From Candidatus Scalindua sp. (GTDB lineage Bacteria > Planctomycetota > Brocadiia > Brocadiales > Scalinduaceae), in contig JALDRA010000001.1 in the NCBI GenBank assembly GCA_031316235.1, positions 3,900,001 to 3,932,000 of the forward strand: a DNA stretch of 32,000 nt, written 5' to 3'. Below, in pieces: positions 2,482 to 24,933 of this stretch (the stretch's first letter is position 1; each line of letters opens with the position of its first letter). Below the pieces are notes generated by a model. That model did no database searches and had not been told where the DNA came from. It saw only the letters and a list, made by a program, of their open reading frames with translations. Both the position numbers and the translations under genes were made by a program.

Positions 2482-2700
2482 TGCCTGATCTCCTGTAAAA
2501 AATCCGCTCAAATGTTCGGCAGAGACAAATACCTGGCCCGATCCTTTCTCCAAGTAAAGCCGGGTTCATGGAACAAGGCTGCCCATGCCAAAAGATTTTG
2601 GTCGCCGGCAGCTTGTGAAAAAACCAAGTCGCAATATTCTCTGGTCTTGAATATACGCCATTTTAAACTCTTTTCCCTTATTGTAAGATCACAAATTTTT

Positions 2701-3330: not shown

Positions 3331-3364
3331 GATCTCTGAAACTTTTTCTGCTACTCACCTTATA

Positions 3365-3403
3365 AAAGTTTTTGGTTAAAATCCGAGAAAAACCGAGTGA
3401 GCC
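3365..3403 (+). repeat. intergenic repeat family A (..GTTTTTGG[AT]TAAAATCCGAGA..GAG[TC]GAG..), copy 1
   Basis: Sequence aaagtttttggttaaaatccgagaaaaaccgagtgagcc, which aligns with 22930-22970 and with the reverse complement of 29461-29503. Confidence 0.6.
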
Positions 3404-3444
3404 TAGCTGCAATCAATCTTTTGTTTTTAGAAAAATTTAACATA

Positions 3445-3462
3445 GATCGGTTTTCGTATATC
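3445..3462 (-). repeat. intergenic box family B (GATATAC[TGA]AAAACCGAT), copy 1
   Basis: The reverse complement reads gatatacgaaaaccgatc. It lies about 115 nt upstream of the start of the hypothetical gene. Confidence 0.5.
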
Positions 3463-3710
3463 AGGTTTCGAAAATATAGTAGTCTATTCATTGTATCGAT
3501 GAGGTGTCAACTACTATATCTTTCTTTAAAACCGGAAAATAATAAAAATTGTTCCGGAAATACAATGATTCATATACGCATACTATACTGAATATAACTC
3601 GTTTGTAAAGAAATGGTTCCGTACAGACAGAAAAAGCATTTCTGTATAATTGGCAGTGTGAAAAACAGAAACCGCATTTTTTTGTTTACTTCAAGTATTC
3701 ATTCCTTTCC

Positions 3711-4835
3711 TTAAAACATTGGTTCCATTGCAAGAACGGGATGGTTGACTTTCTGCAGGTGTTCAAAGACCTCTTCTTCTGTCACCGCTATGGTTTCGTC
3801 AGCAATCTTACTGACAAAATCTTCCAGCCCGGCAGATTCTGCAGCCTTAAGCAGGACATCACCGATCTCATCTTTGAGCTGTTTTGGCATCCACACCAGC
3901 CTGGCAAGACCACCGTCACCAGAAATAAATTTGCTGCTGCTCATGTAAAATTTGCTGTGCCCTACAAACCCGGGCGTCTGTATTCCACCTCCGACTGTTC
4001 CCGCAAGTGTAGAAAATTTCATCCCGCAGGGAGTCATACCTGTATAGTCTCTATCCACGGTCATTATCCCATTAGTCATCGGCAGCATGGCGGAGATACA
4101 TTCAAAACAACCGCAGCTTGTCATGGGATTCGTTACCATACTGTACATGCTTACCTGTTCAAACTCTCTGTTGGATGCCTGGTAGAGGAACCTGTTTGTC
4201 CCTTCCCAGAGGCCCAGCTTTTCATCTATCAATTTACCTTTTTCAATTGGTTGATTCGGGCCTGTCGGTGTTATTTCAAAACCTGCCTTCCCGTCCAGCC
4301 AGCTGACCGCACCGCACAAACCGGAACGTTCAGGAGATATTATGCATACGTGGCTGGGCGCGAAACTCTGGCACAGAGTACAGCTGTAAAATTGATTTAC
4401 TGATGCATCTGTCATCCCCAGTGCCCTTTCATCACGTTCGGTAAATGCCGCTTTCACCTCATCCAGCTTAGTCTCTACCTTATCTCTGTCTGTATACAAT
4501 GTTACCTGGACCTTGTCTAATAATGCACCGTACTCCTCATGATATTTGGAGTGAATTATTTTGCCTATGTGGAACAGCCTGAATCCTTTATCAAAAGCAT
4601 CCTTGCTGATTCTGTGCCTGATAATGTCTCTCTGCCCCATATGAAAGAATCCCTGTGCTTCTCCGAGGAAATGATGGGTTCTTCTTTCAAAGATCGGTTC
4701 AAATTCACTCTGCATCTTACGCCCGGATACCTCAATATATATCCCCAGCGATTTACCCGGACCCGGCTCCATTTCATCCATATCCGGACCAACCACATTC
4801 ACCTTACCATCTTCAATTTCACTATTATCCCTCAT
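3711..4835 (-). CDS. acsB: acetyl-CoA synthase (CODH/ACS alpha, AcsB), C-terminal two-thirds fragment carrying the A-cluster
   Basis: Carries the A-cluster Cys-Gly-Cys context MTSCGCFECI, plus FYSCTLCQSFAPSHVCIISPERSGLCGAVSWLD and a C-terminus (GLARLVWMPK...IADETI) that is colinear with Moorella AcsB as I remember it. It overlaps the upstream fragment by 4 nt (ATGA). Confidence 0.9.
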   Translation of the reverse strand: MRDNSEIEDGKVNVVGPDMDEMEPGPGKSLGIYIEVSGRKMQSEFEPIFERRTHHFLGEAQGFFHMGQRDIIRHRISKDAFDKGFRLFHIGKIIHSKYHEEYGALLDKVQVTLYTDRDKVETKLDEVKAAFTERDERALGMTDASVNQFYSCTLCQSFAPSHVCIISPERSGLCGAVSWLDGKAGFEITPTGPNQPIEKGKLIDEKLGLWEGTNRFLYQASNREFEQVSMYSMVTNPMTSCGCFECISAMLPMTNGIMTVDRDYTGMTPCGMKFSTLAGTVGGGIQTPGFVGHSKFYMSSSKFISGDGGLARLVWMPKQLKDEIGDVLLKAAESAGLEDFVSKIADETIAVTEEEVFEHLQKVNHPVLAMEPMF

Positions 4836-5890
4836 GACAACATATTCAAACGCCGGGGTACCCGGTCCCCTATCTCTATCTGCATATCCTCTTTTCTGAT
4901 TCTCTCGCCTTCGAATGCCGGGCCGTATGCAACCGGAATATCCACCTTCGCGGCAGCTACCTTTAACCCCCTCACCTCAATGCACTTTTCTACAATCTTA
5001 TCATGAGAAATATTGGGCACCACATGCTCATACGTACAAACACCTGTCGGCAAAACAGAAGGTATATCGGTATCCGCTATGGTCGGAAAACCATAGTTGA
5101 TAGCTCCCGCAGCATTTGCATATTTTTCATCATCCACCTCGCCCAGCGCCATGACAAAGGCAAAAATCCTGTTTTTATTGTAGAGCAGATTCCTCCTGAA
5201 GTCTCCTGCTTTTATACCTCCAAAAGATAACGCGGCTTTATTTGCAAATCCAAGGGAATAGATAGTAGCGGTAATGCTCTTGCCAAACGGTACAAGTCTT
5301 GTCTCCCACCCAAGCTGTACACCCTCTTCATCAAGCTGCTCCGCGAAAGATTTGCCGTTTGTGTTACCGGAGATAAAAACATACAGGTTTTTCTCCTGCA
5401 ACTCGCGCGCTATCTTCACGGCAATCTCATTTGTGGGCGCAGCTCCAACAACCGCAGCAAACCCCGGAGCAGTGCCGTCAACAAACTCTATCCCGCGTTC
5501 CCGCAGAATAACGTCACTCGCAGCTCCCAGCCATATCCCCTCTACAGGGTTCGGGCCGATAAGGTATTTACACGCCTCTAATACCTCCTCTGCAAAAAGC
5601 GTCGCTATGCCGGCATCCAGGGCCCAGCCGAGATACGGCAGCCATACTTCTTCTTCCGGCATGGGCGGTAATAACGCCCGTGCGTGCCCGAGTGCCTCTT
5701 CGCAATCAGACAGGGTCTTTACCTTCAGTGCAGTAGCTGCGTAGATTATGGGCAGACAGTAACCGGTGTTGGGAAATTCAACCTTCGCATCTTTCCCTTT
5801 TGATTCTATTGCTTCGTTTAATTTTGCCTCTGCCTGCTTTACAATAGAATATGCACCCCGTATTGCAGCAGAACATATTATTCTTGACAT
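4832..5890 (-). CDS. acsB: acetyl-CoA synthase (AcsB), N-terminal fragment; ends prematurely after a frameshift
   Basis: Colinear with the AcsB N-terminal domain up to ...VAYGPAFEGERIRKEDMQIEIGDR. The last 10 residues (VPRRLNMLS) are out of frame, and the expected TPAFEYVV continues in the frame of 3711..4835. Confidence 0.85.
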   Translation of the reverse strand: MSRIICSAAIRGAYSIVKQAEAKLNEAIESKGKDAKVEFPNTGYCLPIIYAATALKVKTLSDCEEALGHARALLPPMPEEEVWLPYLGWALDAGIATLFAEEVLEACKYLIGPNPVEGIWLGAASDVILRERGIEFVDGTAPGFAAVVGAAPTNEIAVKIARELQEKNLYVFISGNTNGKSFAEQLDEEGVQLGWETRLVPFGKSITATIYSLGFANKAALSFGGIKAGDFRRNLLYNKNRIFAFVMALGEVDDEKYANAAGAINYGFPTIADTDIPSVLPTGVCTYEHVVPNISHDKIVEKCIEVRGLKVAAAKVDIPVAYGPAFEGERIRKEDMQIEIGDRVPRRLNMLS

Positions 5891-6041
5891 CTGTACCTAC
5901 TCCTATTGAATGTTAATCTATCTGTACCTGATAAGGAAAAAGTTCGTCATACATACCTTCAACTTGCTCAGACACAGATTCTGAAAAAATTTACTCTTAA
6001 TGTTAAAAATTAATACAGAGGTGAATAATCACACACCCCTG

Positions 6042-8741
6042 CTACTGGCCGTTTAATTTCTCAACTTTGATTGCACATGACTTAAGCTCAGGGATCTTAC
6101 ATATCGGGTCAAATGCATCATTAGTAAGTAAGTTTGTCAATGCATCTCTGTGATGGAATGCGAGGAACGTAACGCCCGGCTGGGCTCTGTCGGTTATGTG
6201 TACCTTTATCTCCATTTTTCCTCTCCTTGAGCTGACGAGAACCTTTTCGTTATCCTTTATATCAAATCTCCTTGCATCATACGGATTCAGTTCTAATGTC
6301 TCATCAGGCCACTTGTCATATATTTTACTTGACCTTCTCGTCATGGAACCGTTGTTATAATGCTGTCTGCGACGGCCGGTCGTAAGGATAAGCGGATACT
6401 GATCATCGGGCACTTCAGCCGATGGCATGTGTTCCCTGAAATTGAACATGGCTTTCCCACTCGGCCTGTTGAATTTCTCCTCGTACATTATAGTCGTACC
6501 CGGATGATCTATATCAGGACATGGCCACTGGATTCCGTCAGGATCAAGTTTTTCATGATTAACCCCCGCAAACATGGGAGCAAGTTCCGCAAGCTCGTCC
6601 CATATCTCAGAAGGCGAAGAATAGTTCATATTTTTTATTCCAAGCGCATTTGCCACCATGCATATGATTTCCCAGTCCGCCTTGCCTCCCAATGGTTCGA
6701 TTGCTTTCCGAATGAGCTGTATCCTTCTTTCACCATTGGTGAAGGTGCCGTCCTTCTCCACGTGACTTGAGCCGGGAAGGATTACATCGGCAAACTCAGT
6801 GGTCTCTGTCGGCACGATATCCTGCACCACGAGGAAGTCTAATTTCTTCAGCCCGCTTTTTACGAAGTTGACATTGGCATTTGTCATGGCAGGATCTTCT
6901 CCGAAGATATAGTATGCCTTTAACGTTCCCTTATTCATTGCAATGTCCATCTCCGTACAGGTTAAACCCGTCTTCTCATCAAGCTCGACACCCCAGGCCT
7001 TTTCTAATTTAGCCTTTACCTTCTTGTCATCAAGCTTCTGATAACCAACGTGTACATTAGGCAAAGCTCCCATATCACACGACCCCTGGACGTTGTTCTG
7101 GCCCCGGGTAGGATTTATTCCCACGTTCGGTCTTCCAAGATGACCGGTAACGGTAGCAAGATTAGCCAGAGACATGACGGTGGCCGTTCCGGTTGAATGT
7201 TCTGTCATACCAAGACTGTAAATAATCATTGCCTTGTCAGTCTTTGCATACATCCTGGCAGCGTCAATAATCCTGTCTTTTGGAACACCCGTGATGCCTG
7301 AAACGTATTCGGGAGTGTATTTCATCACACCTTTCTCAAGCTCTTCGAATCCTTCGGTACGTTTCCTGATAAACTCCCTGTCCTCAAGCCCTTCATTTAC
7401 GATGACATGGACCAGCCCGTTTAACAGCGCTATATTCGTGCCTGGTATCAGGTTCAGCCAGATGTCAGCCCTCTCCGCAAGCTGGGTCTTTCTCGGATCA
7501 CCTACAATCAGTTTCGTCCCGTTATCGAGCGCGTCTTTTATCTTCAGTCCGATAATAGGGTGAGCCTCATAGGGGTTAGCTCCTATTACGAACAGAAGTT
7601 CCGCGTCACGGATATGTTCAAATGAATTTGTCGCCGCACCGCTGCCGTAGCATGCCGCCAGCCCCGAAACGCTCGCGCTGTGGCATACTCTTGCGCAGTT
7701 ATCAATGTTATTGGTACCCATCATTCGACCCAGTTTCTGGAATATATAGTTTTCTTCATTTGTACATCTTGATGAAGATAAGAATCCCAGGCTGTTCGGA
7801 CCATGCTTCTTCTTAATCTCCGTAAACTTATCGGCAATGAGCGTAATCGCCTCATCCCAGCTCGCCTCTTCCAGCTTTCCGTTTTTTCGTATCAGGGGTG
7901 TAGTTATCCTGTCCTTATGATGTATGTGCTCATAGCCAAACCGGCCCTTTACACAGAGACTTCCCTTATCATTAACCGGTGCATCAAAGCACTGAGAAAT
8001 GGAGACAACCTTTTGGTCTCTGATATTTAAGTAGTAATTGCAGCCTGTTCCGCAGTAGGTACAGGTGGTTCTGACCTTCTCAAACTGCCAGGACCGTCCC
8101 TTACCTTTGGTGGATAGCTCCTGTAACGACCCAACCGGACACGCTTCTATGCACTGGCCGCAAAGCTCACAGTCACCTTCCCTGGAAATATTAGTAGTAT
8201 TCGGAGTGCCTAAGGCCGTGAATCCCTTAGCCTTAAACCCGAGAGCGAAGGAATACTGAAGTTCAGCGCAGGTTCGAGAACACCTGGCACACATGATGCA
8301 TTTATCGCGATCCCACTCAATCACCCCATTATTGGGCAGTTCTGTGAATTTTCGTATCGTCTGCTGGCTCCATTCCGCGTGTACCTCGAACTGGTAGGAA
8401 TAATTCTGGAGTTCACACATACCTGTCTTTTCACAGGTCATACAGTCATTAGGATGGTTGGCCAGTATCAGTCTCAGGTTGTTTTTCCGTAGTTCCGCAA
8501 TATTATCACTTTCTGTCGTAACTTTCATCCCATCCCAGACAGGAGTGTTACAGGCAGTTACCGGACCAAGATTCCCATCTACCTCGACAACACATATCCT
8601 GCACTGTCCAAATGGTTTCAGGAGGTCCCAATGGCATAGAGTAGGAATATGTATCTTATTTTTTTTGGCAACCTGAAGGATAGTTTCACCTTCACCTGCT
8701 TCATATTCTTTCTGGTTCATTTGAAATGTAATCTTTTTCAT
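6042..8741 (-). CDS. fdhA: formate dehydrogenase alpha subunit, molybdopterin type with an N-terminal 2Fe-2S/4Fe-4S (NuoG-like) module, cysteine variant
   Basis: ORF 6042..8756. Motifs seen: 2Fe-2S region CHWDLLKPFGQCRICVVEV, ferredoxin motifs CIMCARCSRTC and CELCGQCIEACP, Mo-bisPGD cluster CTYCGTGCN, and active site CARVCHSAS (Cys codon at 7683-7685, no in-frame TGA). I prefer the ATG at 8741 (MKKITF...) because GGGAGA lies 5-6 nt upstream. Confidence 0.9.
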   Translation of the reverse strand: MKKITFQMNQKEYEAGEGETILQVAKKNKIHIPTLCHWDLLKPFGQCRICVVEVDGNLGPVTACNTPVWDGMKVTTESDNIAELRKNNLRLILANHPNDCMTCEKTGMCELQNYSYQFEVHAEWSQQTIRKFTELPNNGVIEWDRDKCIMCARCSRTCAELQYSFALGFKAKGFTALGTPNTTNISREGDCELCGQCIEACPVGSLQELSTKGKGRSWQFEKVRTTCTYCGTGCNYYLNIRDQKVVSISQCFDAPVNDKGSLCVKGRFGYEHIHHKDRITTPLIRKNGKLEEASWDEAITLIADKFTEIKKKHGPNSLGFLSSSRCTNEENYIFQKLGRMMGTNNIDNCARVCHSASVSGLAACYGSGAATNSFEHIRDAELLFVIGANPYEAHPIIGLKIKDALDNGTKLIVGDPRKTQLAERADIWLNLIPGTNIALLNGLVHVIVNEGLEDREFIRKRTEGFEELEKGVMKYTPEYVSGITGVPKDRIIDAARMYAKTDKAMIIYSLGMTEHSTGTATVMSLANLATVTGHLGRPNVGINPTRGQNNVQGSCDMGALPNVHVGYQKLDDKKVKAKLEKAWGVELDEKTGLTCTEMDIAMNKGTLKAYYIFGEDPAMTNANVNFVKSGLKKLDFLVVQDIVPTETTEFADVILPGSSHVEKDGTFTNGERRIQLIRKAIEPLGGKADWEIICMVANALGIKNMNYSSPSEIWDELAELAPMFAGVNHEKLDPDGIQWPCPDIDHPGTTIMYEEKFNRPSGKAMFNFREHMPSAEVPDDQYPLILTTGRRRQHYNNGSMTRRSSKIYDKWPDETLELNPYDARRFDIKDNEKVLVSSRRGKMEIKVHITDRAQPGVTFLAFHHRDALTNLLTNDAFDPICKIPELKSCAIKVEKLNGQ

Positions 8742-8888
8742 GTTTTCTCCCAACATTAATTATCTAGCTTGTAGACTTTGTAAAACTGCAAATTATATTT
8801 TTGAATTACCAAAAAACACCACTTACAGGTAACGCAATTTTCACTTGTGAATCTTTTCTTTACCATTTTCTTTGCACCCTGGATAACC

Positions 8889-9040
8889 ACAAAAAAAGCC
8901 AACACCTCAACCACAATACTTTTTTTAAAGTATTCGTGAAAAAGATGCTGGCTTACTCTGCAACAATTTTTCGTAACAAAAAATCCTTGCCAAGTCTTCC
9001 TTTAAAATCGCAAAGTACCTGAATTGAAAAAAATAATCAA
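8889..9040 (-). promoter_or_regulatory. conserved leader RNA module, copy 1 (candidate riboswitch/attenuator or sRNA) upstream of fdhA
   Basis: On the sense (minus) strand: GGAAGACT at 9000-8993 and GTTGCAGAGTAAGCCAGC at 8964-8947. The terminator is GCCAGC...GTTGGC plus T7, spanning plus coordinates 8891-8952. A weak promoter is possible (TTGATT 9040-9035, 17-nt spacer, TACTTT 9017-9012). Confidence 0.7.
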
Positions 9041-9233: not shown

Positions 9234-10139
9234 TTATATTAACAGCTCTTTCCCCGTAAGCTTACTATACGCCTCAAGATATTTTTCAGACGTAATCCGG
9301 ATTATGTCTTCGGGGAGCGAAGGCGGAGATGAATTTTTATCCCATCCGGTGCTCTCCAAATAATCTCTCACGAATTGCTTGTCGAATGATGGTTGAGGTT
9401 TTCCGGGTGAGTAATTTTCCATTGGCCAGAAACGCGATGAGTCTGGAGTCAGTATTTCATCGATTAAGAGCAGTTTGTCTCCATGTTTACCCCATTCAAA
9501 TTTGGTATCACATATTATGATTCCTTTCGTCAAGGCATATTCACTTGCTTTTTCATAAATCTCTATGCTTTTTTCTCTTAACTCTTCAGCGAGTTTCTTG
9601 CCCGCAATCTGTACCAGTTCGTCGAAAGAAATGTTCTCGTCGTGTCCGGAGGTTGCCTTTGTTGACGGGGTGAAAATAGGTTCTGGAAGTTTATCGCACT
9701 CTTTCAGGCCTGCCGGCAACTTAATTCCGCATACTGTTCCGCTTCCTTTATACTCTTTCCAGCCTGAACCAGCCAAATAGCCTCGTATTATGCATTCAAC
9801 AGGAATAACGTCAACTTTTTTTACCAGCATCGTCCGGCCACTTAAGGCATCATCGTCACCTTTTTTTATTCCTTTTATTCCTTTGACTTCTGTTGTGATT
9901 AAGTGGTTTTCTGTTATATCTTCAGTGCTCTTGAACCAGAATTCCGATAAATGGGTAAGCACTTTACCTTTATATGGAATCCCATCAGGCAGCACATAAT
10001 CAAAAGCGGAAATCCTATCTGTTGCGATAATTAACAAGCTGTCATCCAACTCATAAATGTCTCTAACTTTTCCGCTGCTGTAAAGTTTCAGATAAGGAAT
10101 ATTTGTTTTTAAGAGCATAGGATTGTTTCTCTGTAACAT
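9234..10139 (-). CDS. purC: phosphoribosylaminoimidazole-succinocarboxamide (SAICAR) synthase
   Basis: The 301-aa ORF contains LYSGKVRDIYE, IIATDRISAFD and CDTKFEWG, which are typical PurC segments. Confidence 0.93.
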   Translation of the reverse strand: MLQRNNPMLLKTNIPYLKLYSSGKVRDIYELDDSLLIIATDRISAFDYVLPDGIPYKGKVLTHLSEFWFKSTEDITENHLITTEVKGIKGIKKGDDDALSGRTMLVKKVDVIPVECIIRGYLAGSGWKEYKGSGTVCGIKLPAGLKECDKLPEPIFTPSTKATSGHDENISFDELVQIAGKKLAEELREKSIEIYEKASEYALTKGIIICDTKFEWGKHGDKLLLIDEILTPDSSRFWPMENYSPGKPQPSFDKQFVRDYLESTGWDKNSSPPSLPEDIIRITSEKYLEAYSKLTGKELLI

Positions 10140-10623: not shown

Positions 10624-10775
10624 ACAAAAAAAGCCAATGTCTGTCTACTTCCTCTCTCTTATGAGAACAAGTAGACGAACATTGGCTTACTCTTCAACAA
10701 TCCCTGTTGACTAAAGGATTCCTGCTTAGTCTTCCTGAATCAAAAAATCATAATTCAAAGAAATACATTAGTCAA
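10624..10775 (-). promoter_or_regulatory. conserved leader RNA module, copy 2
   Basis: On the sense (minus) strand: -35 TTGACT 10775-10770, 17-nt spacer, -10 TATGAT 10752-10747. GGAAGACT lies at 10735-10728 and GTTGAAGAGTAAGCCAAT at 10698-10681. The terminator is a long hairpin with a GCCAAT:ATTGGC base plus T7 (plus coordinates 10626-10686). Confidence 0.75.
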
Positions 10776-14602: not shown

Positions 14603-14751
14603 TTTAGAGATAGCTCCTCTCTCCCCGGAGTTAGTAGTCATTATAATAACAAAATAACAACAAAGATGTTGAGCTGCAACTCTTACAAAAGTTAAAAAAG
14701 CTCACTTCTGTTCTTTGGGTGCACTATTTGGCCTGCCTTGATGGCGTATCT

Positions 14752-16766: not shown

Positions 16767-16794
16767 AAAAGTGCCATCATTAAGCCGGCACTTT
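16767..16794. terminator. hairpin AAAGTGCC-N11-GGCACTTT between the convergent TolC-like and SulP genes (weak terminator candidate)
   Basis: The 8-bp stem was read directly and overlaps the stop codon of SulP copy 2. The U-tract is short, so this is a low-confidence call. Confidence 0.3.
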
Positions 16795-18423
16795 ATTTCC
16801 GACGGGAAGGGCCGAGACCCATCTGTCAAGTTTCTCGGAGTATATCTCTTCTCTGCTCTCAACACTGTCCGATTTACACTTCACCCTGACAATAATGTCT
16901 TTTTCGTCTGCCGATACAATAAAATCCTCTATGATCTCCCGCACATCGTAATCAATACTATAACATTTACTCAAATCGATAGTCAGGATTGTTCCGCTGC
17001 GTATCTTTGAGAATTCATTCAAGATAGCCCCTTTATGTAAAAAAGTAACATCTTCTGCCAGGGTCATTCTCAATTGTTTCTTCCTGTCATATATCTCAAG
17101 ATGTAAAAAGTGAGAGTTTTTGTAGTTACGGATTAATATCATGGCAATACCAACACAACATCCAAGCCCAAGCCCTACCAGTAAATCAACAAAGACAATT
17201 CCAATGACCGTAGCCACAAACGGTATGAACTGGTCCCATCCCAGACGGTATATTTCTGCAAGCAGTGAAGGCCTGGACAATTTAAACCCTACCATTAATA
17301 AAATGCATGCAAGGGCGGACAACGGTATCATATTGAGAATGCCCGGAATGAGCCCTACACAGATCATCAGAAATGAACCATGAAGTATAGTGGATAATTT
17401 AGTTCTTCCACCGGCCTGAATATTGGCAGAACTTCGAATGATCACCTGGGTAATCGGCAATCCACCAATCATTCCGGATATGATATTTCCGGTACCTTGA
17501 GCGAATAACTCCCGGTTTGTTGACGTGACTCTCTTGTGAGTATCCAGTTTATCCGTGGCTTCCACGCACAGGAGCGTTTCTAAACTGGCGGCAATTGCAA
17601 TGGTAACAGCTAAAACATACACTTCTCTATTTCCTAACTGGCTGAAATCAGGAAAAGTAAACTGATCAAAGAGTGAGGTGAAGCTGCCTGCAACCGGCAC
17701 ATGCACCAGGTGTTCAGGACCCAAGTTAAGGAGAGGAAAATAACTCTTTGTTATTATCTGGCAGCAAATAGCAGCTACGACCACAACGATTGGCCCCTGC
17801 ATCAATCTGAATAGATCGTGTTTTTTTTTCAGATACAACTCCCACAGAAGTAAAATTGCCGTTGAAATAATAGCAATAAATACCGCTCCGGGTGTTACAT
17901 GTTGAAGAAGTTTCCACAGCAAGGTAAACGTGGTATCGCCACTTTTAAATGCTGAAGAAACACTGCCCATCCACTCTTTGTCTAATCCAAGCGTATGAGG
18001 TATCTGTTTCAGGACGATGATGATGCCAAAGCCCGCCAGCATCCCCTTTATGGCCGAAGAGGGGAAATAATACCCGATGATGCCTGCCCTTACCAGGCCA
18101 AGCAGTATTTGTATCACTCCCCCAATGACAACAGCCAGTAAAAATATTTCGAAAGAACCAATTTTAGCCAGTGCATCCAGGACAATTACCGCCAGACCTG
18201 CTGCGGGGCCGCTGACCCCATGTGCGGAGTCACTGATAGACCCTACAACCATCCCCCCGATTATGGCTGCGATAAGGCCGGAAAATAAGGGAGCTCCGCT
18301 TGTCAGGGCAATTCCAAGACAGAGAGGCAGTGCGACAAATAGCACCACAATACCTGCAGGTATGTCTTGCTGAAAGTGAGACAAGATTTCAAATTTCTTT
18401 CTGCCAGTTTCAATCTTAAGCAT
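16780..18423 (-). CDS. SulP-family anion (sulfate/bicarbonate-type) permease with a STAS domain, copy 2
   Basis: The 547-aa ORF is colinear with copy 1 along its whole length and is roughly three-quarters or more identical by eye. Confidence 0.9.
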   Translation of the reverse strand: MLKIETGRKKFEILSHFQQDIPAGIVVLFVALPLCLGIALTSGAPLFSGLIAAIIGGMVVGSISDSAHGVSGPAAGLAVIVLDALAKIGSFEIFLLAVVIGGVIQILLGLVRAGIIGYYFPSSAIKGMLAGFGIIIVLKQIPHTLGLDKEWMGSVSSAFKSGDTTFTLLWKLLQHVTPGAVFIAIISTAILLLWELYLKKKHDLFRLMQGPIVVVVAAICCQIITKSYFPLLNLGPEHLVHVPVAGSFTSLFDQFTFPDFSQLGNREVYVLAVTIAIAASLETLLCVEATDKLDTHKRVTSTNRELFAQGTGNIISGMIGGLPITQVIIRSSANIQAGGRTKLSTILHGSFLMICVGLIPGILNMIPLSALACILLMVGFKLSRPSLLAEIYRLGWDQFIPFVATVIGIVFVDLLVGLGLGCCVGIAMILIRNYKNSHFLHLEIYDRKKQLRMTLAEDVTFLHKGAILNEFSKIRSGTILTIDLSKCYSIDYDVREIIEDFIVSADEKDIIVRVKCKSDSVESREEIYSEKLDRWVSALPVGNKVPA

Positions 18424-18586: not shown

Positions 18587-19510
18587 TTAGAATTCCCATT
18601 TGAATTTTACTCCCCATGCACTGTTGGCCTCATGATTAAGGAGATCGCCGAAGTGCATATAGGCTATTGACATAGTCAAATGGTCATTAGCTATATACGT
18701 TATAAAACCGTCCCACCAATCATCTTCTTCTGCAATGAGTCCCGGGATTTTATCGTATTGATCAGGTTTTTGACGATACTCCCCACCTATCACAAGATTG
18801 TCCAGGGCCAGGACACCAAAGTTGCCTTCAAAGACGGTTTTCCGATTCTCAGTAAAGCCAAGCAGGCCAATCTGGGCAGCTTCAGTAGACCTGACACCCA
18901 CATTTATCATGAGAGGCCGCGGCAGTGATGTAATCATTTTAGATGCATAAAGAGTTACATCAACTCCATCGTCATCCTTGATACCTATAGCATTAAGTCC
19001 TCCCTGCAAACGTCTGTCTATGACTTCAGAATCATTGTTGTTCTTATAGTGCAGCCCCAACGTCAGGGCCGGCATCCATGATTTCTTAAAGTCCCCCTCT
19101 TTCAGTATCTGAAACCTGGTGTTAAAGTTATGCATATATATTGAATCCTCTATAGTGTCTATACCGGTACCTGCCCGGATATCCCTGGGTAAATCACCTA
19201 AATCAAGATGGTTTAAAGAATACCCAAATTCAAGCCGGCCCCACAGAGTTTCAGATACGGTAAATGCTTCCATGTGTCTTCCATGACCAATGTTAGCATA
19301 TGTCACACCACCGGCCGGCAGCCCGAAAACCCTGCCCTCTTCTGATGGATTTATGAGATAGGCGGAGCCGGTTATGAGGATTCCTCCAAACCCTTCAATA
19401 TTTTGTAATGGAAGTGGTGGAGCCTTCACTTTCTCTCCTGCAAACACGGTTTGGGCTGTCATGATAAGCACAAGGTAAACCAGACTATTGATCATAGATA
19501 TTTTCTTCAT
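18587..19510 (-). CDS. secreted outer-membrane beta-barrel (porin-like) protein, family not identified
   Basis: It has a signal peptide MKKISMINSLVYLVLIMTAQTVFAGE, an alternating amphipathic pattern and the C-terminal signature ...WGVKFKWEF. GGAGG lies 8 nt upstream of the ATG. Confidence 0.65.
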   Translation of the reverse strand: MKKISMINSLVYLVLIMTAQTVFAGEKVKAPPLPLQNIEGFGGILITGSAYLINPSEEGRVFGLPAGGVTYANIGHGRHMEAFTVSETLWGRLEFGYSLNHLDLGDLPRDIRAGTGIDTIEDSIYMHNFNTRFQILKEGDFKKSWMPALTLGLHYKNNNDSEVIDRRLQGGLNAIGIKDDDGVDVTLYASKMITSLPRPLMINVGVRSTEAAQIGLLGFTENRKTVFEGNFGVLALDNLVIGGEYRQKPDQYDKIPGLIAEEDDWWDGFITYIANDHLTMSIAYMHFGDLLNHEANSAWGVKFKWEF

Positions 19511-19639: not shown

Positions 19640-19825
19640 GCAAAAAAAGCCAACTCCCTACCACCTGTCCATTCATCATGAGAACAGTATGATAGGTGTT
19701 GGCTTACTCTTCAACGGCCCCTTTTATTTAAAGTGCCTTTGCTTAGTCTTCCCCCACTGCTTCAAACAAACTTCCTCTCAACACTACAAATTTACTATCA
19801 TATTTTCATCCGCAATCATAGTCAC
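19640..19825 (-). promoter_or_regulatory. conserved leader RNA module, copy 3, upstream of the porin-like/SulP operon
   Basis: On the sense (minus) strand: -35 GTGACT 19825-19820, 17-nt spacer, -10 TATGAT 19802-19797. GGAAGACT lies at 19752-19745 and GTTGAAGAGTAAGCCAAC at 19715-19698. The terminator is GCCAAC...GTTGGC plus T7 (plus coordinates 19642-19703). Confidence 0.75.
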
Positions 19826-19890
19826 TAAATTGTTCCAGCCAGATTCTCCATTATACACGGGTTATTTTTAATTAGACAATAGAGTTATTG

Positions 19891-20265
19891 TCATGCTATT
19901 TCCTTATTCTTAAGCCTTGATTCCAGATTCTGCTCTAATATGAAAACAATTACCCTCTCTCCTGTTTTTGTGCTTATATCAGAGTGTAAACTTTTTATCC
20001 TGCATCCCGTAATTTCTATAATAATATTTTTCAATAAAGCCTTGGCTCCCTCTAATAATTGAACATGAGTTTCCTTTACCAAAGCTGCACCCTCCGAGGT
20101 TTTAGCCAACTGTTCTTCAGCCGGAGTCAGCACACCTTTAAGCTGTACGTATATAACATCCTTTATAATGTAGATAACTGTTTCTATAGGGCATCTACCC
20201 ATAAATTCTTGTTCAAACTTTATGATTGCTTCACTGATTTTTGCTTCGAATTGACACTTAGTCAT
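19891..20265 (-). CDS. DUF2294 / MpsC-family protein, copy 1
   Basis: ORF 19891..20460. The N-terminal 65 codons cover the leader module, so I place the start at ATG 20265 (MTKCQFEAKISEAIIKFEQEFMGR...). That start aligns with the paralog and with DUF2294 proteins (LKGVLTPAEEQLAKT, HSDISTKTGERVIVF). Confidence 0.8.
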   Translation of the reverse strand: MTKCQFEAKISEAIIKFEQEFMGRCPIETVIYIIKDVIYVQLKGVLTPAEEQLAKTSEGAALVKETHVQLLEGAKALLKNIIIEITGCRIKSLHSDISTKTGERVIVFILEQNLESRLKNKEIA

Positions 20266-20320
20266 AATTGTTTTAAGGACCTCTTGCTGAGTTATCCCGC
20301 ACCAATTACCATACCCATAA

Positions 20321-20476
20321 ACAAAAAAAGCCAACCTCATGTTCTTTACATACTCTAAAAAAGAGTATAGAAAACGGGGTTGGCTTACTTCGCAACAATT
20401 ATTTTGTATAGAAAATTCCTGCTCAGTCTTCCTTATAGTAGAATCTACTATATAATCCAAATAATTAAGAAGTCAA
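20321..20476 (-). promoter_or_regulatory. conserved leader RNA module, copy 4, upstream of MpsC-like copy 1
   Basis: On the sense (minus) strand: -35 TTGACT 20476-20471, 16-nt spacer, -10 TATATA 20454-20449. GGAAGACT lies at 20432-20425 and GTTGCGAAGTAAGCCAAC at 20396-20379. The terminator spans plus coordinates 20323-20384 with T7. Confidence 0.75.
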
Positions 20477-20552
20477 GTGTTTTTTAGATTCAGGTTGTCA
20501 TTTTTCGTATCATCTCTTAAATGATTGGTTCGATAAAGTTTATCCTGTTTAA

Positions 20553-20924
20553 CTAACCTTTATATTCAGATTCTAAATCATGATCTAATATAAAAACAAT
20601 TACCCTCTCTCCTGTCTTTGTGCTTATGTCAGAATGCAGGCTCTTTGTGATGCAGCCCGTAATATCCAAAATAATATTTCTCAGTAAAGACCTTGCCCCC
20701 TCTAATAATTGAGCACGAGTCTTTTTTATCAATAATGCGCCTTCAGAGGTCTTGGCAAGTTGCTCTTCAGCCGGGGTAAGGACGCCCTTAAGCCGAACTA
20801 ATACTACATCTTTTATAATGAAGGTATTCGTTTCCATAGGACCTCTACCCATAAAATCTTTTTCAAACTTTATCAATGCCTCGCTTATTTTCGCTTCCAG
20901 TTGGCCTTTGGTTAACTTTCCCAT
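20553..20924 (-). CDS. DUF2294 / MpsC-family protein, copy 2
   Basis: ORF 20553..20957 begins with a GTG. The ATG at 20924 gives MGKLTKGQLEAKISEALIKFEKDFMGRGP..., a typical DUF2294 N-terminus. Confidence 0.8.
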   Translation of the reverse strand: MGKLTKGQLEAKISEALIKFEKDFMGRGPMETNTFIIKDVVLVRLKGVLTPAEEQLAKTSEGALLIKKTRAQLLEGARSLLRNIILDITGCITKSLHSDISTKTGERVIVFILDHDLESEYKG

Positions 20925-20954
20925 ATGATTAAATATAAGAGTAATTATTTTGTA

Positions 20955-20976
20955 CACTAAAACCGATTTGGTTTTC
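20955..20976 (+). repeat. intergenic box family B, copy 3 (immediately upstream of MpsC-like copy 2)
   Basis: Sequence actaaaaccgatttggttttcg, containing the AAAACC-N5-GGTTTT palindrome. Confidence 0.55.
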
Positions 20977-21137
20977 GCTTAAAGAGAAAGAATAGATAAA
21001 TAATTACCAAAATCAAGAAGTATTTGGAAAATTATTTTTTATACCTATTGAGGTAATGGGAAATAACAAGACAAGCAGGGGAGATTTTTTTACAATTTGA
21101 AAATATGGCATAAGGGAAAAATAAGCCGTTAAAAGAA

Positions 21138-21289
21138 TTGACTATTTAATCTTTTTGGATTATAATGCCGCGCAAGTAAGGAAGACTGTACAAGAATTTC
21201 TAAAACCAAAGAAATTGTTGAAGAGTAAGCCAACATCAATTTCCAGACGTTATGTAAAAGAAAATCAGGAAATAGTGTTGGTTTTTTTG
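21138..21289 (+). promoter_or_regulatory. conserved leader RNA module, copy 5, upstream of oadGBA
   Basis: -35 TTGACT 21138-21143, 17-nt spacer, -10 TATAAT 21161-21166. GGAAGACT lies at 21180-21187 and GTTGAAGAGTAAGCCAAC at 21217-21234. The terminator is GCCAAC (21229-21234)...GTTGG (21277-21281) plus T7 (21282-21288). Confidence 0.8.
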
Positions 21290-21388: not shown

Positions 21389-21667
21389 ATGGAAATCAAA
21401 TTAAGTATTCAGAATATCCTGGATGGACGGGGTTTCGACATCTCAATTACCGGTATGGTGGTTGTATTTACAGCACTTGCCTTGATAAGTGCCTTTATCT
21501 CCCTCCTTCCCGCTATTTTGAGGATAGTTAACAGGATATTTCCGCAGGAAGAAGCTTCCCATGCCCCTTCTCTGTCACGGAGTTCGCATACACCGGAAAA
21601 TGAGGTGATAGCAGCAATCGGATTCGCTCTTCACATGGCAAAGGAAAAACATGTTTTTAACGATTAA
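21389..21667 (+). CDS. oadG: Na+-pump decarboxylase gamma subunit (OadG family)
   Basis: The 92-aa protein has a single N-terminal TM helix (ITGMVVVFTALALISAFISLL) and sits immediately upstream of the beta subunit. Confidence 0.7.
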   Translation: MEIKLSIQNILDGRGFDISITGMVVVFTALALISAFISLLPAILRIVNRIFPQEEASHAPSLSRSSHTPENEVIAAIGFALHMAKEKHVFND

Positions 21668-21747
21668 ATAGCGTATTGAATGGAAATTAACCTGTTTTTT
21701 GGAATGGATTACAACTAACATCTACCTGATATTTCGAGAGGATATAA

Positions 21748-22875
21748 TTGGAAATTTTTTATGAGTTTCTTAATACAACCGGTTTTGCAATGATGACATG
21801 GGGCAATGCTATCATGATACTGGTAGGTATCATTTTTGTCTCTCTTGCCATTATCAAAGATTATGAGCCTTTGCTGCTTCTCCCTATCGGATTTGGGGCA
21901 ATCGTTGGAAATATACCTTCAATTCAGGGAATGGCCCTTAATGTATACGATGAAGGAAGCGTTCTGAGTTATCTGTACTATGGTGTCAGCAAGGGTATAT
22001 TCCCCCCTATTATATTTCTTGGTATCGGAGCCATGACAGATTTTTCCACTATGCTCTCTAATCCCAAGCTGGTTCTGCTTGGTGCGGCAGCCCAGATAGG
22101 GATATTCCTGACGCTAATCGGCGCCTTGTATCTGGGGTTTCCTCCTTCAGATGCCGCATCCATAGGGATCATAGGTGGCGCGGATGGACCTACAGCAATA
22201 TTTTTGTCAGCTAAACTTGCTCCGCATCTTTTAGGTTCTATTGCCATAGCCGCCTATTCGTACATGGCCCTTGTCCCGGTAATACAACCTCCGATAATGA
22301 GACTGCTTACTACCAGAAAGGAACGTCTGATACGGATGAAAGCACCAAGACATGTGCCACAGCGGGAAAAAATCATTTTCCCGGTTGCAGCTTTTCTTGT
22401 TGCCGCATTGATTGCTCCGGGTGCCCTGGTGCTCATAGGAATGCTTTTCCTCGGAAATCTCTTAAAGGAAAGTTGTGTGACAGAACGTCTGGCTAATACA
22501 GCACGTAATGCGATGATTGATATCGTAACAATCTTTCTCGGATTTTCAGTCGGGGCGAGTACCCAGGCACAAACCTTTCTGACCCATCAATCGCTACTTA
22601 TTTTTGGTCTGGGTGCCTTGTCATTTGCTATAGCAACTGCAGGCGGCGTACTTTTTGCCAAGTTAATGAACCTCTTTATTCGTGAAAAGATAAATCCTCT
22701 TATCGGAGCTGCTGGTGTATCTGCGGTACCTGACTCTGCACGAGTTGTTCAGATGGTTGGACAGAAAGAGGATCCGCACAATTTCCTGCTTATGCATGCC
22801 ATGGCCCCCAATGTAGCCGGGGTAATCGGCTCGGCTATCTGTGCAGGTATTTTATGGTCTGTACTGGTAAAATAA
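21748..22875 (+). CDS. oadB: Na+-translocating decarboxylase beta subunit (OadB/GcdB/MmdB family)
   Basis: The 375-aa polytopic protein starts colinear with OadB (..[20 protein letters not shown]). It uses a TTG start with GAGAGGA 6 nt upstream. Confidence 0.88.
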
Positions 22876-22929
22876 GGTAATAATTATTTCTTAACTGGTA
22901 TTGCGAGAGAGCAGACATACTCATTGCAT

Positions 22930-22970
22930 AAGGGTTTTTGGATAAAATCCGAGATAAAATTGAGCGAGTA
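22930..22970 (+). repeat. intergenic repeat family A, copy 2 (oadB-oadA spacer)
   Basis: Sequence aagggtttttggataaaatccgagataaaattgagcgagta. Confidence 0.6.
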
Positions 22971-23112
22971 TACCTTCACCAAGATTTGGTATAGCATAAA
23001 GGATAATAAGAAATCTGATATCTGATTTAAGAAGAGCATGTATGTTTATAATTAATTTCCATCTGTAAAATTCTATAGAAGCAGGATTTTGTTTTGGTTT
23101 TGAGGGAGAAGT

Positions 23113-24933
23113 ATGACAAAGAAGATAAAATTCATGTGTACAGCCTTTCGTGATGGCTTTCAATCTGTATATGGTGCGAGGGTATTAACCAGGGATTTTC
23201 TCCCTGCTGTTGAAGCGGCCAGGGATGCGGGTCTTTATTACCTGGAGGCCGGTGGAGGAGCCCGTTTCCAATCTCTATACTTTTATTGCAACGAAGATGC
23301 CTTTACCATGATGGATGATTTCCGTAAGACTGCAGGGCCGGATGCAGAACTGCAGACCCTTGCCCGTGGTGTTAATGTCGTCGCCCTGGATTCTCAGCCA
23401 AGCGATTTTATTACGCTCCACGCTCAGCTCTTTAAAAAACACGGTATTACGACGATACGCAACTTTGATGCACTTAATGATGTAAGGAATCTCATATTCA
23501 GCGGTAAAAGTATTGTTGATGCCGGACTGAAACACCAGGTATGCATTACCATGATGGAGTTGCCTCCAGGTTGCACGGGTGCACATGATCCGGAGTTTTA
23601 TCTCGGCATCCTGCGCCAGATATTGGATGCAGAGATTCCTTTTCATTCCATATGCTTCAAAGATGCTTCCGGTACGGCAGTACCATCAAAGGTTTACGAG
23701 ACAATCAAACAGGCGAGAACAATGGTCCCTGCAGATACATCCATTCATTTCCATACACATGAAACCGCCGGAATCGGAGTCAGTGCCAACAAGGCAGCAA
23801 TTGACGGCGGTGCAGATGCTATTGATCTCTCGATGGCACCATGTTCAGGAGGCACCTGTCAACCCGACATACTGGTGATGTGGCACGCATTGAGAGGGTC
23901 TGGTTATGATCTTGATGTAGATATTGATAAGGTGCGAAAGGTAGAAGAAATCTTCAAGGAGTGTATGAAAGAGTATTTTCTTCCGCCTGAGGCGACTGCT
24001 GTTGAGCCCATGATTCCCTGGTGTCCCATGCCGGGTGGTGCCCTTACGGCCAATACCCAGATGCTTCGTGATAACAATATCATGGAAAAATATCCGGATA
24101 TCATAAAGGCTATGAGCGAAGTGGTCCGAATGGGTGGGTACGGAACATCTGTAACGCCTGTTTCTCAGTTTTACTTCCAGCAGGCATTCAATAATGTCAT
24201 GTTTGGTCCGTGGAAAAAGATTGCACCGGGTTACGGTAAAATGGTCCTCGGTTATTTTGGAAAAACCCCTGTGTCACCAGATCCTGAGATCGTTAACATT
24301 GCATCTGCTCAACTCAAGCTCAAACCAACAGAGGCGTCACCACTTGAAATTGATGACAAAGATCCGGAGAAGAGTGTCGAACACGTTCGTAGCATTCTAA
24401 AAGAAATGAATATTGATGAGACAGATGAAAATCTCTTCATCGTTGCTACATGCAAAGAGAAGGGGGTAAAATATCTTAAAGGAGATGCTGAAACAGGAAT
24501 CCGTAAGATTATGAAAAAAGCAGATTCAGCAGCACCCCAGACACCTGTTAACCAGAAAACCGGCAGAGCAGAATATACGTTGAAAGTTAATGAGAAAAGT
24601 TATTCAATTGAATTAGAAGGAAGCAGGGTAAAAGTAAACGGCAACGTTTATCAGGTAGACATGCAGGGAGAGAAAAGCACCTCACAGGAGAGCAGTTCTG
24701 CAGGTGCCGGTGGAACTGACCAAACCGCCGTGAAGGCCCAAATGCCGGGCAAAGTAATACGTTTAACTGCAAGAGTCGGAGATCGGCTAAAAGCGGGCCA
24801 ATCAATCCTGATAGTAGAAGCAATGAAAATGGAAATACACGTTTCAAGTCCCATAGAAGGTACGCTGTGCGACATAAGCGTCCAGGAGGGAGACCAGATA
24901 ACCACTGGACAAACTCTAGCTACAATGAAGTAA
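23113..24933 (+). CDS. oadA: oxaloacetate decarboxylase alpha subunit / pyruvate carboxylase subunit B type (carboxyltransferase plus biotinyl domain)
   Basis: It has an N-terminal carboxyltransferase motif (AFRDGFQS) and HTHETAGIG, and a C-terminal biotinyl domain with EAMKME. GGGAG lies upstream of the ATG. Confidence 0.88.
   Translation: MTKKIKFMCTAFRDGFQSVYGARVLTRDFLPAVEAARDAGLYYLEAGGGARFQSLYFYCNEDAFTMMDDFRKTAGPDAELQTLARGVNVVALDSQPSDFITLHAQLFKKHGITTIRNFDALNDVRNLIFSGKSIVDAGLKHQVCITMMELPPGCTGAHDPEFYLGILRQILDAEIPFHSICFKDASGTAVPSKVYETIKQARTMVPADTSIHFHTHETAGIGVSANKAAIDGGADAIDLSMAPCSGGTCQPDILVMWHALRGSGYDLDVDIDKVRKVEEIFKECMKEYFLPPEATAVEPMIPWCPMPGGALTANTQMLRDNNIMEKYPDIIKAMSEVVRMGGYGTSVTPVSQFYFQQAFNNVMFGPWKKIAPGYGKMVLGYFGKTPVSPDPEIVNIASAQLKLKPTEASPLEIDDKDPEKSVEHVRSILKEMNIDETDENLFIVATCKEKGVKYLKGDAETGIRKIMKKADSAAPQTPVNQKTGRAEYTLKVNEKSYSIELEGSRVKVNGNVYQVDMQGEKSTSQESSSAGAGGTDQTAVKAQMPGKVIRLTARVGDRLKAGQSILIVEAMKMEIHVSSPIEGTLCDISVQEGDQITTGQTLATMK

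Follow-up and report, generated by a model that had tools for sequence, protein, structure and literature searches.

In the hut system of Bacillus subtilis, the gene of a small regulator lies directly upstream of a leader terminator, and binding of the protein to the nascent RNA decides whether the terminator forms. PyrR attenuators occur before and between the genes of one cluster. In the ribonucleic antiterminators (RATs) of BglG, SacY, and LicT, a few nucleotides of an imperfect, internally looped hairpin are shared with the 5' arm of the terminator, and stabilizing this hairpin prevents termination. With regard to inorganic carbon, the cyanobacterial CcmR and CmpR set bicarbonate transporters, carbonic anhydrase, and carbon-fixation genes according to the inorganic-carbon supply. 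Carboxylations are needed by every cell, for purines, fatty acids, anaplerosis, and the t6A of tRNA, and to our knowledge the sensing of CO2 or bicarbonate in non-phototrophic bacteria is largely unknown. Here we describe a leader RNA of about 110 nt, a rod-shaped RNA followed by a long intrinsic terminator, that is present in five copies in a 32,000-nt stretch of the genome of Candidatus Scalindua sp. (contig JALDRA010000001.1, positions 3,900,001 to 3,932,000; hereafter the window). On balance we favor, though not strongly, the reading that it is an antiterminator/terminator switch operated by the protein MpsC (DUF2294) and that it controls an inorganic-carbon regulon.

The locus resembles the hut leader, PyrR, and GlpP systems in that a leader terminator gates structural genes, here in an mpsC-leader-operon layout. 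However, MpsC has no sequence or fold similarity to any of the three regulators, and the predicted MpsC target is a single rod with purine-rich internal loops, not the UAG repeats of HutP or the binding loop of PyrR. The overlap geometry is that of the RAT, here with the nucleotides AAGCC belonging to both rod and terminator, but no CAT/PRD domain protein was found, the rod is ~52 nt long compared with ~29 nt for a RAT, and the genes concern inorganic carbon instead of sugar uptake. CcmR/CmpR and the control of mpsAB in Staphylococcus aureus are functional analogues, but they act through DNA-binding factors or uncharacterized mechanisms, whereas the control proposed here would come after initiation, through leader RNA and terminator. 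In S. aureus, transcription of mpsA is lower at 5% CO2, and a weak terminator separates mpsC from the preceding genes mpsAB, which encode the bicarbonate transporter; deletion of mpsC gave no phenotype and its function is not known (PMC6689103). Finally, the Na+-I riboswitch (DUF1646 motif) is a transcriptional ON switch in which the aptamer competes with an intrinsic terminator, and some representatives control oxaloacetate decarboxylase (PMC9337991). Its architecture is that of two hairpins; the conserved bases lie in the lower part of P1 and in the loop of P2 (PMC9337991). The leader RNA shares with it the competition between aptamer-like part and terminator, the ON layout, and a predicted oxaloacetate decarboxylase among the controlled genes, but it forms one rod, in which two internal loops are followed by a variable apical loop, and it precedes mostly carboxylation enzymes instead of cation transporters.

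Five copies of the leader RNA in the window

The window contained five matches to GGAAGACT-N(25-50)-AGTAAGCC, with 0 expected from 100 shuffles. A covariance model (R1) built from 53 homologues of the leader RNA also found exactly five units in the window, with scores of 84-89 bits and E values of ~1e-15 to 1e-16. Pattern and model gave the same five positions, which are those of the original prediction made from the sequence (Table 1). The invariant core of the rod is GGA-N-GACU...GUUG...AGUAAGCC. In a MAFFT alignment of the five full units, GGAAGACU, GUUG, and AGUAAGCCA were invariant, as was the terminator arm UUGG, which is followed by the U-tract. Three of the copies do lie in 19640-21289, but they are not back to back as had been described, since the two mpsC genes separate them. 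Four promoters had been called clear. We found clear promoter-like sites for only three copies (copies 2, 4, and 5, with a 17/18-nt spacer). The candidate of copy 3 matches at only 9/12 positions and lies 45 nt upstream, and the promoter search at copy 1, where only a weak candidate had been noted before, gave no convincing site.

Fold and overlap with the terminator

We folded the five units with ViennaRNA. All five isolated cores formed a rod consisting of GG:CC, an AAG/AAG loop, ACU:AGU, a second loop, CA(A):U(U)G, and an apical hairpin, which reproduces the rod that had been drawn by hand. All five full-length units formed a partial rod and a long terminator hairpin that includes AAGCC and is followed by U7 (z -4.1 to -8.2). 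Each copy thus carries what is expected of an intrinsic terminator, a stable G+C-containing hairpin with a U-tract directly after it, and the hairpin and U7 reported for each copy were borne out. A simple terminator scanner reported 0/5 of the window terminators because the hairpins are long and interrupted.

AAGCC is common to the 3' strand of P1, the basal helix of the rod, and to the 5' arm of the terminator, and the two alternative folds could both be computed. Rod and terminator therefore compete for these nucleotides, with the terminator as the thermodynamic default, and the overlap and ON-switch geometry proposed earlier stand. The expression platform is mutually exclusive with the aptamer-like rod, as in riboswitches. 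We also considered an OFF switch in which the 5' GGAAGAC pairs with the 5' arm of the terminator. By eye, this complementarity is partial and is not conserved across copies and subfamilies, so we rejected it.

This layout is the first argument for a true riboswitch, in which the rod would bind a small ligand or ion, binding in the internal loops would lock P1, and the terminator would be blocked, MpsC being a regulon member or neighbor. The rod is compact and aptamer-like (~52 nt), its 3' strand overlaps the terminator, and the layout is comparable to that of the Na+-I ON switch, where the aptamer P2 competes with the terminator (PMC9337991). We regard this explanation as a serious but rather unlikely one, and the evidence on both sides is given with the results below.

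Distribution and conservation

At least ~190 further copies were found, in at least eight phyla. Metagenome-derived counts, here and below, are among the matches listed for the degenerate pattern. With the strict pattern, contigs from one genome per species gave 46 loci, almost all with the same terminator arrangement. Their hosts are Omnitrophota, Planctomycetota (Scalindua, Anammoxibacter, Brocadiaceae), Aminicenantia, Cloacimonadota, Elusimicrobia, Clostridia, Bacteroidota, and Nitrospirota. Soil and peat metagenomes also carry the leader RNA (among the matches listed). One Flavobacteriaceae match (L032) was rejected as a chance match, with the terminator absent and a score of 22 bits. The contig L043 is assigned to a metagenome-assembled genome (MAG) labeled 'Hydrothermarchaeota archaeon'; its RNA, upstream flank, and 113-nt element are identical to those of L006, an Aminicenantia MAG of the same study. 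The contig is probably a binning contaminant and not evidence of the RNA in archaea.

The copies form two subfamilies, an AT-rich one (subfamily 1) and a GC-rich one from soil and peat (subfamily 2). The GC-rich consensus is GUCGGA[U/C]GACUAGAUGAAGGGCAACCCGGC..GCCGGGGGGCUCGUUGAAGAGUAAGCCGACGUGG...CCACGUCGGCUUUUUUU (among the matches listed); at core position 4 these RNAs (L047-L166) carry U or C, and their P2 is bipartite. Several copies may occur at one GC-rich locus (three in L077, three in L115, and a copy at 1235-1343 in L066). Covariance-model searches also found divergent copies and tandem arrays of two to four complete units, each with its own terminator, with a period of ~130 nt (Table 1). 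Most arrays are from Anammoxibacter and Scalindua. Tandem arrangements are also known from validated riboswitches, and the arrays are thus in keeping with a riboswitch. The arrays in L008, L019, and L011 precede small uncharacterized proteins (235 aa, 116 aa; no Pfam match), and the third unit of the L019 array at 4814-5216 is without the 3' arm of its terminator.

Covariation was assessed in 136 aligned leader-RNA sequences. Both partners vary in 14 pairs of the apical helix (P2) and of the distal part of the terminator. P2 and terminator cells were paired in 93% of cases, compared with 20-44% when the partners were slid, and 0/500 shuffles reached the observed values. Pair 92:186, at the terminator base, varies between GC (75 sequences) and AU (60). 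The compensatory variation first seen in the apical helix and the terminator base of the five copies therefore holds in the larger alignment. P1 behaves differently from these helices. GGA-N-GACU, GUUG, and AGUAAGCC are essentially invariant, P1b (CAA:UUG) varies only by G-U-compatible changes, and P1 (GG:CC, ACU:AGU) is almost invariant, with one compensatory case (L025, ACU:AGU to GCU:AGC). The metagenome pattern had been loosened to permit R/Y/W changes in ACU:AGU and the loops, and P1 was still almost invariant. P1 therefore rests on thermodynamic folding and this single example, while P2 and P1b of the structured aptamer-like RNA are supported by the alignment. The invariant nucleotides concentrate in the internal loops and are kept across at least eight phyla, which favors a riboswitch.

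Many pairs are strand-specific G-U pairs; for instance, pair 20:80 is U-G in 40 sequences and pair 24:75 is G-U in 37. On the other strand these would be A-C mismatches, and therefore it is the sense-strand RNA that is conserved and not a DNA operator. This bears on the idea that the copies are a mobile or selfish repeat, like miniature inverted-repeat transposable elements (MITEs) or repetitive extragenic palindromic (REP) sequences, or a double-stranded operator to which MpsC would bind as a DNA-binding protein. The presence of five copies within 32 kb, tandem arrays elsewhere, and an adjacent gene for a small conserved protein would fit such an element. However, the helices are kept by compensatory changes as well as by G-U pairs, the orientation is strict, there are no terminal inverted repeats or target-site duplications, and the same operon position is occupied across phyla. 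A MITE or DNA operator is thus largely refuted, and we give it hardly any credence.

Absence from Rfam and the literature

At gathering thresholds, Rfam 15 had no match to the leader RNA in the whole window. At E<=10, the copy-bearing segments and the subfamily-2 loci gave only chance matches of the miRNA/snoRNA type on the terminator hairpins. The Na+ (DUF1646) and Li+ (nhaA-I) riboswitches had been suggested as leads, and neither was borne out, because not even a weak cmscan match at E<=10 was found to either model. The single rod is also unlike the two-hairpin architecture of Na+-I, and no nhaA gene is downstream of any copy. The core, which could not be assigned to a named family at first, thus matched no family in Rfam. 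We searched the literature on riboswitches in combination with bicarbonate, carboxykinase/purC, phosphoenolpyruvate carboxykinase (PEPCK)/Omnitrophota, DUF2294, and anammox, and found the motif undescribed; DUF2294 came up in one paper, on an unrelated subject, and the 224-motif paper does not mention such gene associations. The leader RNA is a widespread family of cis-regulatory RNAs that uses a terminator as expression platform and has no entry in Rfam. Switches between a leader antiterminator and a terminator are already known as a kind of mechanism; the RNA family, its likely protein partner, and the apparent physiological signal are new. The finding is new whether the RNA is operated by MpsC or is a riboswitch, and it adds a family that Rfam lacks.

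Downstream genes and a probable inorganic-carbon regulon

Wherever the context could be resolved, the copy was upstream of a gene and in sense orientation to it, as had been reported for the five in the window, and a Shine-Dalgarno sequence is often found 8-60 nt past the U-tract. It had also been stated that a gene starts 28-150 nt after each U-tract. The 28 nt after copy 2 lead to a doubtful open reading frame (ORF) of 46 aa, while purC is 486 nt away; after copy 1, the formate dehydrogenase (FDH) gene follows at 134 nt. The gap between the copy 2 terminator and purC (10140-10625, minus strand) holds this 46-aa ORF (10456-10596) and one of 62 aa (10249-10437). The 'SWWKK' segment of the latter resembles the 116-aa protein that follows the tandem RNAs in L011, which makes the 62-aa ORF a possible gene remnant.

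PEPCK(GTP) is the gene that comes first after the RNA 17 times in the AT-rich subfamily. Other first genes encode an aminotransferase, DUF3034, PurC, PurE, SulP, FDH, PycB/OadA, MpsC, and DUF4914. Outside anammox bacteria, the canonical operon is RNA > PEPCK(GTP) > PurC > MpsC-B > TsaC/Sua5 > AccC (biotin carboxylase) > gamma-carbonic-anhydrase-like > PurE. Anammox bacteria have the RNA ahead of FDH-acetyl-CoA synthase (ACS)-SulP, DUF3034-SulP, OadGBA, PycBA, PurE, and an aminotransferase, and the order RNA > DUF3034 > SulP recurs in three further loci (L015, L102, L110). CO2 is a substrate or product of PEPCK, PurE, FDH, and ACS, and bicarbonate is a substrate of AccC, pyruvate carboxylase, and TsaC. 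Carbonic anhydrase interconverts CO2 and bicarbonate, the SulP family includes BicA-type bicarbonate transporters, and PurC and the aminotransferase consume immediate carboxylation products (the latter only if it is an aspartate aminotransferase). Almost all of these genes thus encode users or suppliers of CO2 or bicarbonate, and therefore the regulon is coherent around dissolved inorganic carbon. Bicarbonate was among the ligands proposed for testing with the original prediction, and by gene context it is the one that best fits the regulon.

The GC-rich subfamily precedes genes for MpsC, sigma-70-type factors, STAS, CsbD/DUF3309, BON, Hsp20-like proteins, and DksA/TraR, and also CsrA, PAS kinases, and phosphoketolase, among others. 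These are not carboxylation genes, and they look like a general-stress set.

The chemical coherence around CO2/HCO3- agrees with a riboswitch, for which bicarbonate or a CO2-related species would be the top ligand candidate, followed by Na+, oxaloacetate, aspartate, and phosphoenolpyruvate. However, a bicarbonate ON switch would induce transporters and carbonic anhydrase at high bicarbonate, opposite to the usual carbon-concentrating logic, and the stress regulon of subfamily 2 (CsbD, BON, Hsp20, DksA, sigma factor) is hard to tie to one metabolite.

The gene context also bears on the second option offered with the original prediction, a family of paralogous trans-acting small RNAs (sRNAs), in which the ~110-nt unit from promoter to terminator would be the product and read-through incidental. 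Each unit has a promoter-like site and a strong terminator, so a discrete RNA of ~110 nt is expected in the OFF state. As the main function, an sRNA is nevertheless very improbable, because every copy is directly upstream of a gene in the same orientation, often with a Shine-Dalgarno sequence after the U-tract. Moreover, the downstream genes are functionally coherent, the conserved part overlaps the base of the terminator, which is switch geometry, and outside the rod no single-stranded seed region is conserved.

Several observations were made on the regulated genes themselves. The ACS after copy 1 (CODH_A_N/CdhC/ACS_CODH_B_C) is present as two ORFs (4832-5890 and 3711-4835, minus strand) with a 4-nt overlap; the gene may be split naturally, or a frameshift or a faulty assembly may account for the two ORFs. 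Both SulP genes of the window (856-2553 and 16780-18423, minus strand) end RNA-controlled operons. In L052, a SulP gene (1952-3583) directly follows the RNA and further SulP paralogues are downstream. Matches of these transporters to BicA and DauA stayed under the curated cut-offs, so no substrate was assigned to them. DUF4914 (~620 aa) is encoded directly after the RNA in L046 (5454-7328, minus strand) and after PEPCK in L030 (~4685 onward), and in both loci a gamma-carbonic-anhydrase-like gene is next. DUF4914 is a candidate inorganic-carbon-related enzyme.

Linkage to MpsC

The original prediction had passed over the identity of the two ORFs between copies 3, 4, and 5, which are both mpsC genes. 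mpsC-2 has no RNA copy upstream; it is directly upstream of copy 4 and divergent from copy 5, and its product is a candidate trans-acting partner of the RNA. The order is mpsC-2, copy 4, mpsC-1, copy 3, DUF3034-SulP. Local tblastn with the window MpsC found an mpsC gene in 100 of 175 loci (among the matches listed), a number that includes 43 of the 46 genome loci. In subfamily 1, mpsC is directly upstream on the same strand in 48 of the 81 copies with enough upstream flank, with its stop codon typically 57-68 nt before GGAAGACU; by eye, the spacer contains a conserved TAnAAT -10-like element. In subfamily 2, an A-type mpsC is divergent from the RNA in 25/87 and a B-type mpsC is downstream in 18/84 (among the matches listed). 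Loci that were fetched by the MpsC protein, blind to the RNA sequence, again contained the RNA. In L171-174 it is upstream of pycB-pycA, two genes downstream of mpsC, and in L169/170 it is upstream of an aminotransferase and, in tandem, of SulP. mpsC is thus linked to the RNA as a dedicated regulator gene is in protein-dependent antitermination, and this coupling is the signature of a protein-operated antiterminator of the hutP, pyrR, or glpP type and not of a classical riboswitch. We know of no riboswitch class with a conserved unregulated protein gene directly upstream or divergent in most loci, which speaks against a riboswitch here.

MpsC is 68-94% identical among 29 sampled homologues from public MAGs and metagenomes. 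The AlphaFold2 (AF2) model is confident (predicted local distance difference test, pLDDT, 92), with the order alpha-beta-beta-alpha-alpha-beta-beta-alpha. A-type MpsC has the invariant motifs MGRGP and H-DISTKTGER. The B-type paralogues in regulated operons are ~30-44% identical and have neither motif; B-type MpsC may be a feedback or decoy subunit. Searches of MpsC gave only PF10057 (MpsC) in Pfam, no NCBIfam model, and no homology to HutP, CAT, ANTAR, or PyrR.

The lack of a recognizable RNA-binding fold in MpsC agrees with a riboswitch, and it would also suit an attenuator operated by another partner, either a different RNA-binding protein or a general factor, with MpsC as a metabolic or accessory protein of inorganic-carbon handling that is co-regulated or co-localized. 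CsrA genes are downstream of two subfamily-2 copies, and the RNA starts with a GGA motif. However, mpsC is the only constant neighbor across the subfamilies and no other gene is consistently linked, so another partner seems quite unlikely to us.

Proposed mechanism

In the mechanism that we favor, each copy would be a cis-acting transcription-attenuation switch in a 5' leader. Transcription would start at its own promoter ~10-20 nt upstream of the core, and the nascent RNA could close the rod, made up of P1 (GG:CC, the 3x3 purine loop AAG/AAG, ACU:AGU), the second internal loop, P1b (CAA:UUG), and the variable P2. Alternatively, the last five nucleotides of the rod, AAGCC, would pair with GGCUU and form the base of the long hairpin that ends in U7. 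This terminator would be the default and would yield a terminated RNA of ~110 nt. If the rod were held closed, 3-5 bp beside the U-tract would be lost, and read-through into the operon would presumably follow, as in an ON switch. The rod would most likely be held closed by the small, extremely conserved cytoplasmic MpsC/DUF2294, with or without an effector, in a role resembling that of HutP, PyrR, GlpP, or LicT. With one paralogue outside the operon and one inside, feedback is suggested, and the B-type or second MpsC inside the operon would exert it. The controlled target would be CO2/HCO3- transport, interconversion, and carboxylation, and in the GC-rich soil subfamily the same module may have been recruited to the general-stress genes. 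Judged by the gene content of the regulon, the switch most likely responds to the CO2/bicarbonate status or to a metabolite that reports it.

We prefer MpsC as the operator because a conserved, unregulated gene for a small protein stays with the leader RNA across phyla and operons, and because a protein sensor avoids the difficulty of a bicarbonate-ON RNA that induces uptake when bicarbonate is plentiful. The riboswitch label thus faces a stronger protein-dependent alternative. A number of results weigh against MpsC and the CO2 signal. The MpsC fold has no significant match to RNA-binding antiterminators (best Foldseek E 0.02, template modeling score, TM, <0.46), its non-significant neighbors being TRAPPC3/V4R-like proteins and uL23. 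There is no sequence match for MpsC in the PDB, and the protein is near-neutral to acidic (isoelectric point 5-8.7). No mpsC was found in L026 (7.7 kb of upstream flank), L030 (2.8 kb), and L039 (1.5 kb), copies 1 and 2 of the window are ~10 kb from the mpsC genes, and L167 and L168 have mpsC without a nearby RNA. P1, being almost invariant, is unproven by covariation, and ~25 unpaired nucleotides are almost perfectly conserved across phyla, which is a classic hallmark of small-molecule riboswitches. Finally, the GC-rich general-stress genes do not obviously fit a CO2 signal. The most far-reaching idea is that the RNA is the first natural riboswitch for inorganic carbon, with bicarbonate/CO2 or a metabolite that reports carboxylation status as its ligand, and that it works either by itself or in a ribonucleoprotein with MpsC. 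It would then define a pan-bacterial regulon that comprises bicarbonate transporters, carbonic anhydrase, and carboxylation enzymes, and would give DUF2294/MpsC a function; we consider this improbable.

The module would mark an inorganic-carbon regulon in mostly uncultured phyla, namely anammox Planctomycetota, Omnitrophota, Elusimicrobia, Cloacimonadota, and Aminicenantia, and it offers a concrete, testable role for DUF2294/MpsC, an extremely conserved family. A 110-nt leader and a 120-aa protein make a simple in vitro system for a CO2/bicarbonate-responsive antiterminator or riboswitch. The covariance model can also be used as an annotation marker for inorganic-carbon genes (DUF3034, DUF4914, and SulP paralogues).

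Table 1. Positions of leader RNA elements and linked genes in the window and in other loci. MFE, minimum free energy; SAICAR, phosphoribosylaminoimidazole-succinocarboxamide.
Feature	Locus	Position	Strand	Basis
Copy 1 antiterminator rod, GGAAGACU...AGUAAGCC	Window	8950..9000	-	Pattern; covariance model 8891-9006, 87.3 bits; core folds closed
Copy 1 intrinsic terminator	Window	8891..8954	-	Starts at rod AAGCC, U7 after; MFE -42.6 kcal/mol, z -7.7
Copy 2 antiterminator rod	Window	10684..10735	-	Pattern; covariance model 89 bits; folding
Copy 2 terminator hairpin + U7	Window	10626..10688	-	MFE -47.8 kcal/mol, z -8.2
Copy 2 promoter-like site: TTGACT, 17-nt spacer, TATGAT	Window	10747..10775	-	Consensus match only
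Copy 3 antiterminator rod	Window	19701..19752	-	Pattern; covariance model 84.2 bits; folding
Copy 3 terminator hairpin + U7, DUF3034 gene 131 nt downstream	Window	19642..19705	-	MFE -40.1 kcal/mol, z -5.1
Copy 4 antiterminator rod	Window	20382..20432	-	Pattern; covariance model 84 bits; folding
Copy 4 terminator hairpin + U7, mpsC-1 57 nt downstream	Window	20323..20386	-	MFE -34.7 kcal/mol, z -4.8
Copy 4 promoter-like site: TTGACT, 18-nt spacer, TATAGT	Window	20447..20476	-	Consensus match
Copy 5 antiterminator rod	Window	21180..21231	+	Pattern; covariance model 87.2 bits; folding
Copy 5 terminator hairpin + U7, oadG 100 nt downstream	Window	21227..21289	+	MFE -26.8 kcal/mol, z -4.1
Copy 5 promoter-like site: TTGACT, 17-nt spacer, TATAAT	Window	21138..21166	+	Consensus match, 11/12 positions
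Operon after copy 1: FDH alpha 6042-8756; ACS, two ORFs, 3711-5890; uncharacterized ORF 2701-3330; SulP 856-2553	Window	856..8756	-	Pfam
purC (SAICAR synthetase), downstream of copy 2	Window	9234..10139	-	Pfam 5.9e-79
DUF3034 gene, first after copy 3	Window	18587..19510	-	Pfam
SulP-family anion transporter, second gene after copy 3	Window	16780..18423	-	BicA/DauA-like matches below curated cut-offs
mpsC-1 (DUF2294)	Window	19891..20265	-	Pfam MpsC 8.9e-35; AF2 pLDDT 92
mpsC-2 (DUF2294, A-type, FMGRGP motif)	Window	20553..20924	-	Pfam MpsC 2.5e-37
oadG-oadB-oadA/pycB operon after copy 5	Window	21389..24933	+	Pfam OAD_gamma, OAD_beta, PYC_OADA + biotinyl domain; NCBIfam
Tandem array	L008	1424-1923	-	
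Tandem arrays	L019	4814-5216; 1426-1668	-	
Tandem array	L011	4802-5047	-	
Tandem array	L042	1528-1766	+	
Tandem array	L102	2624-2876	+	
Tandem array	L169	6283-6535	+	
B-type mpsC	L002	4751-5104		
B-type mpsC	L010	4372-4743		
B-type mpsC	L027	3732-4085		
B-type mpsC	L100	1252-1551		

Other features of the window

The domains encoded by the operon after copy 5 suggest that its product is a Na+-pumping oxaloacetate decarboxylase or a B-type enzyme of pyruvate carboxylase. A biotin-protein ligase (BirA-like) gene (24936-25679, minus strand) is convergent with oadA/pycB, whose product is biotin-dependent. The region 11172-16563 (plus strand) lies between the two groups of copies and encodes a type I secretion-like set (an ABC exporter, an HlyD-family adaptor, and a TolC-like outer-membrane efflux protein), which appears to be unrelated to the RNA copies.

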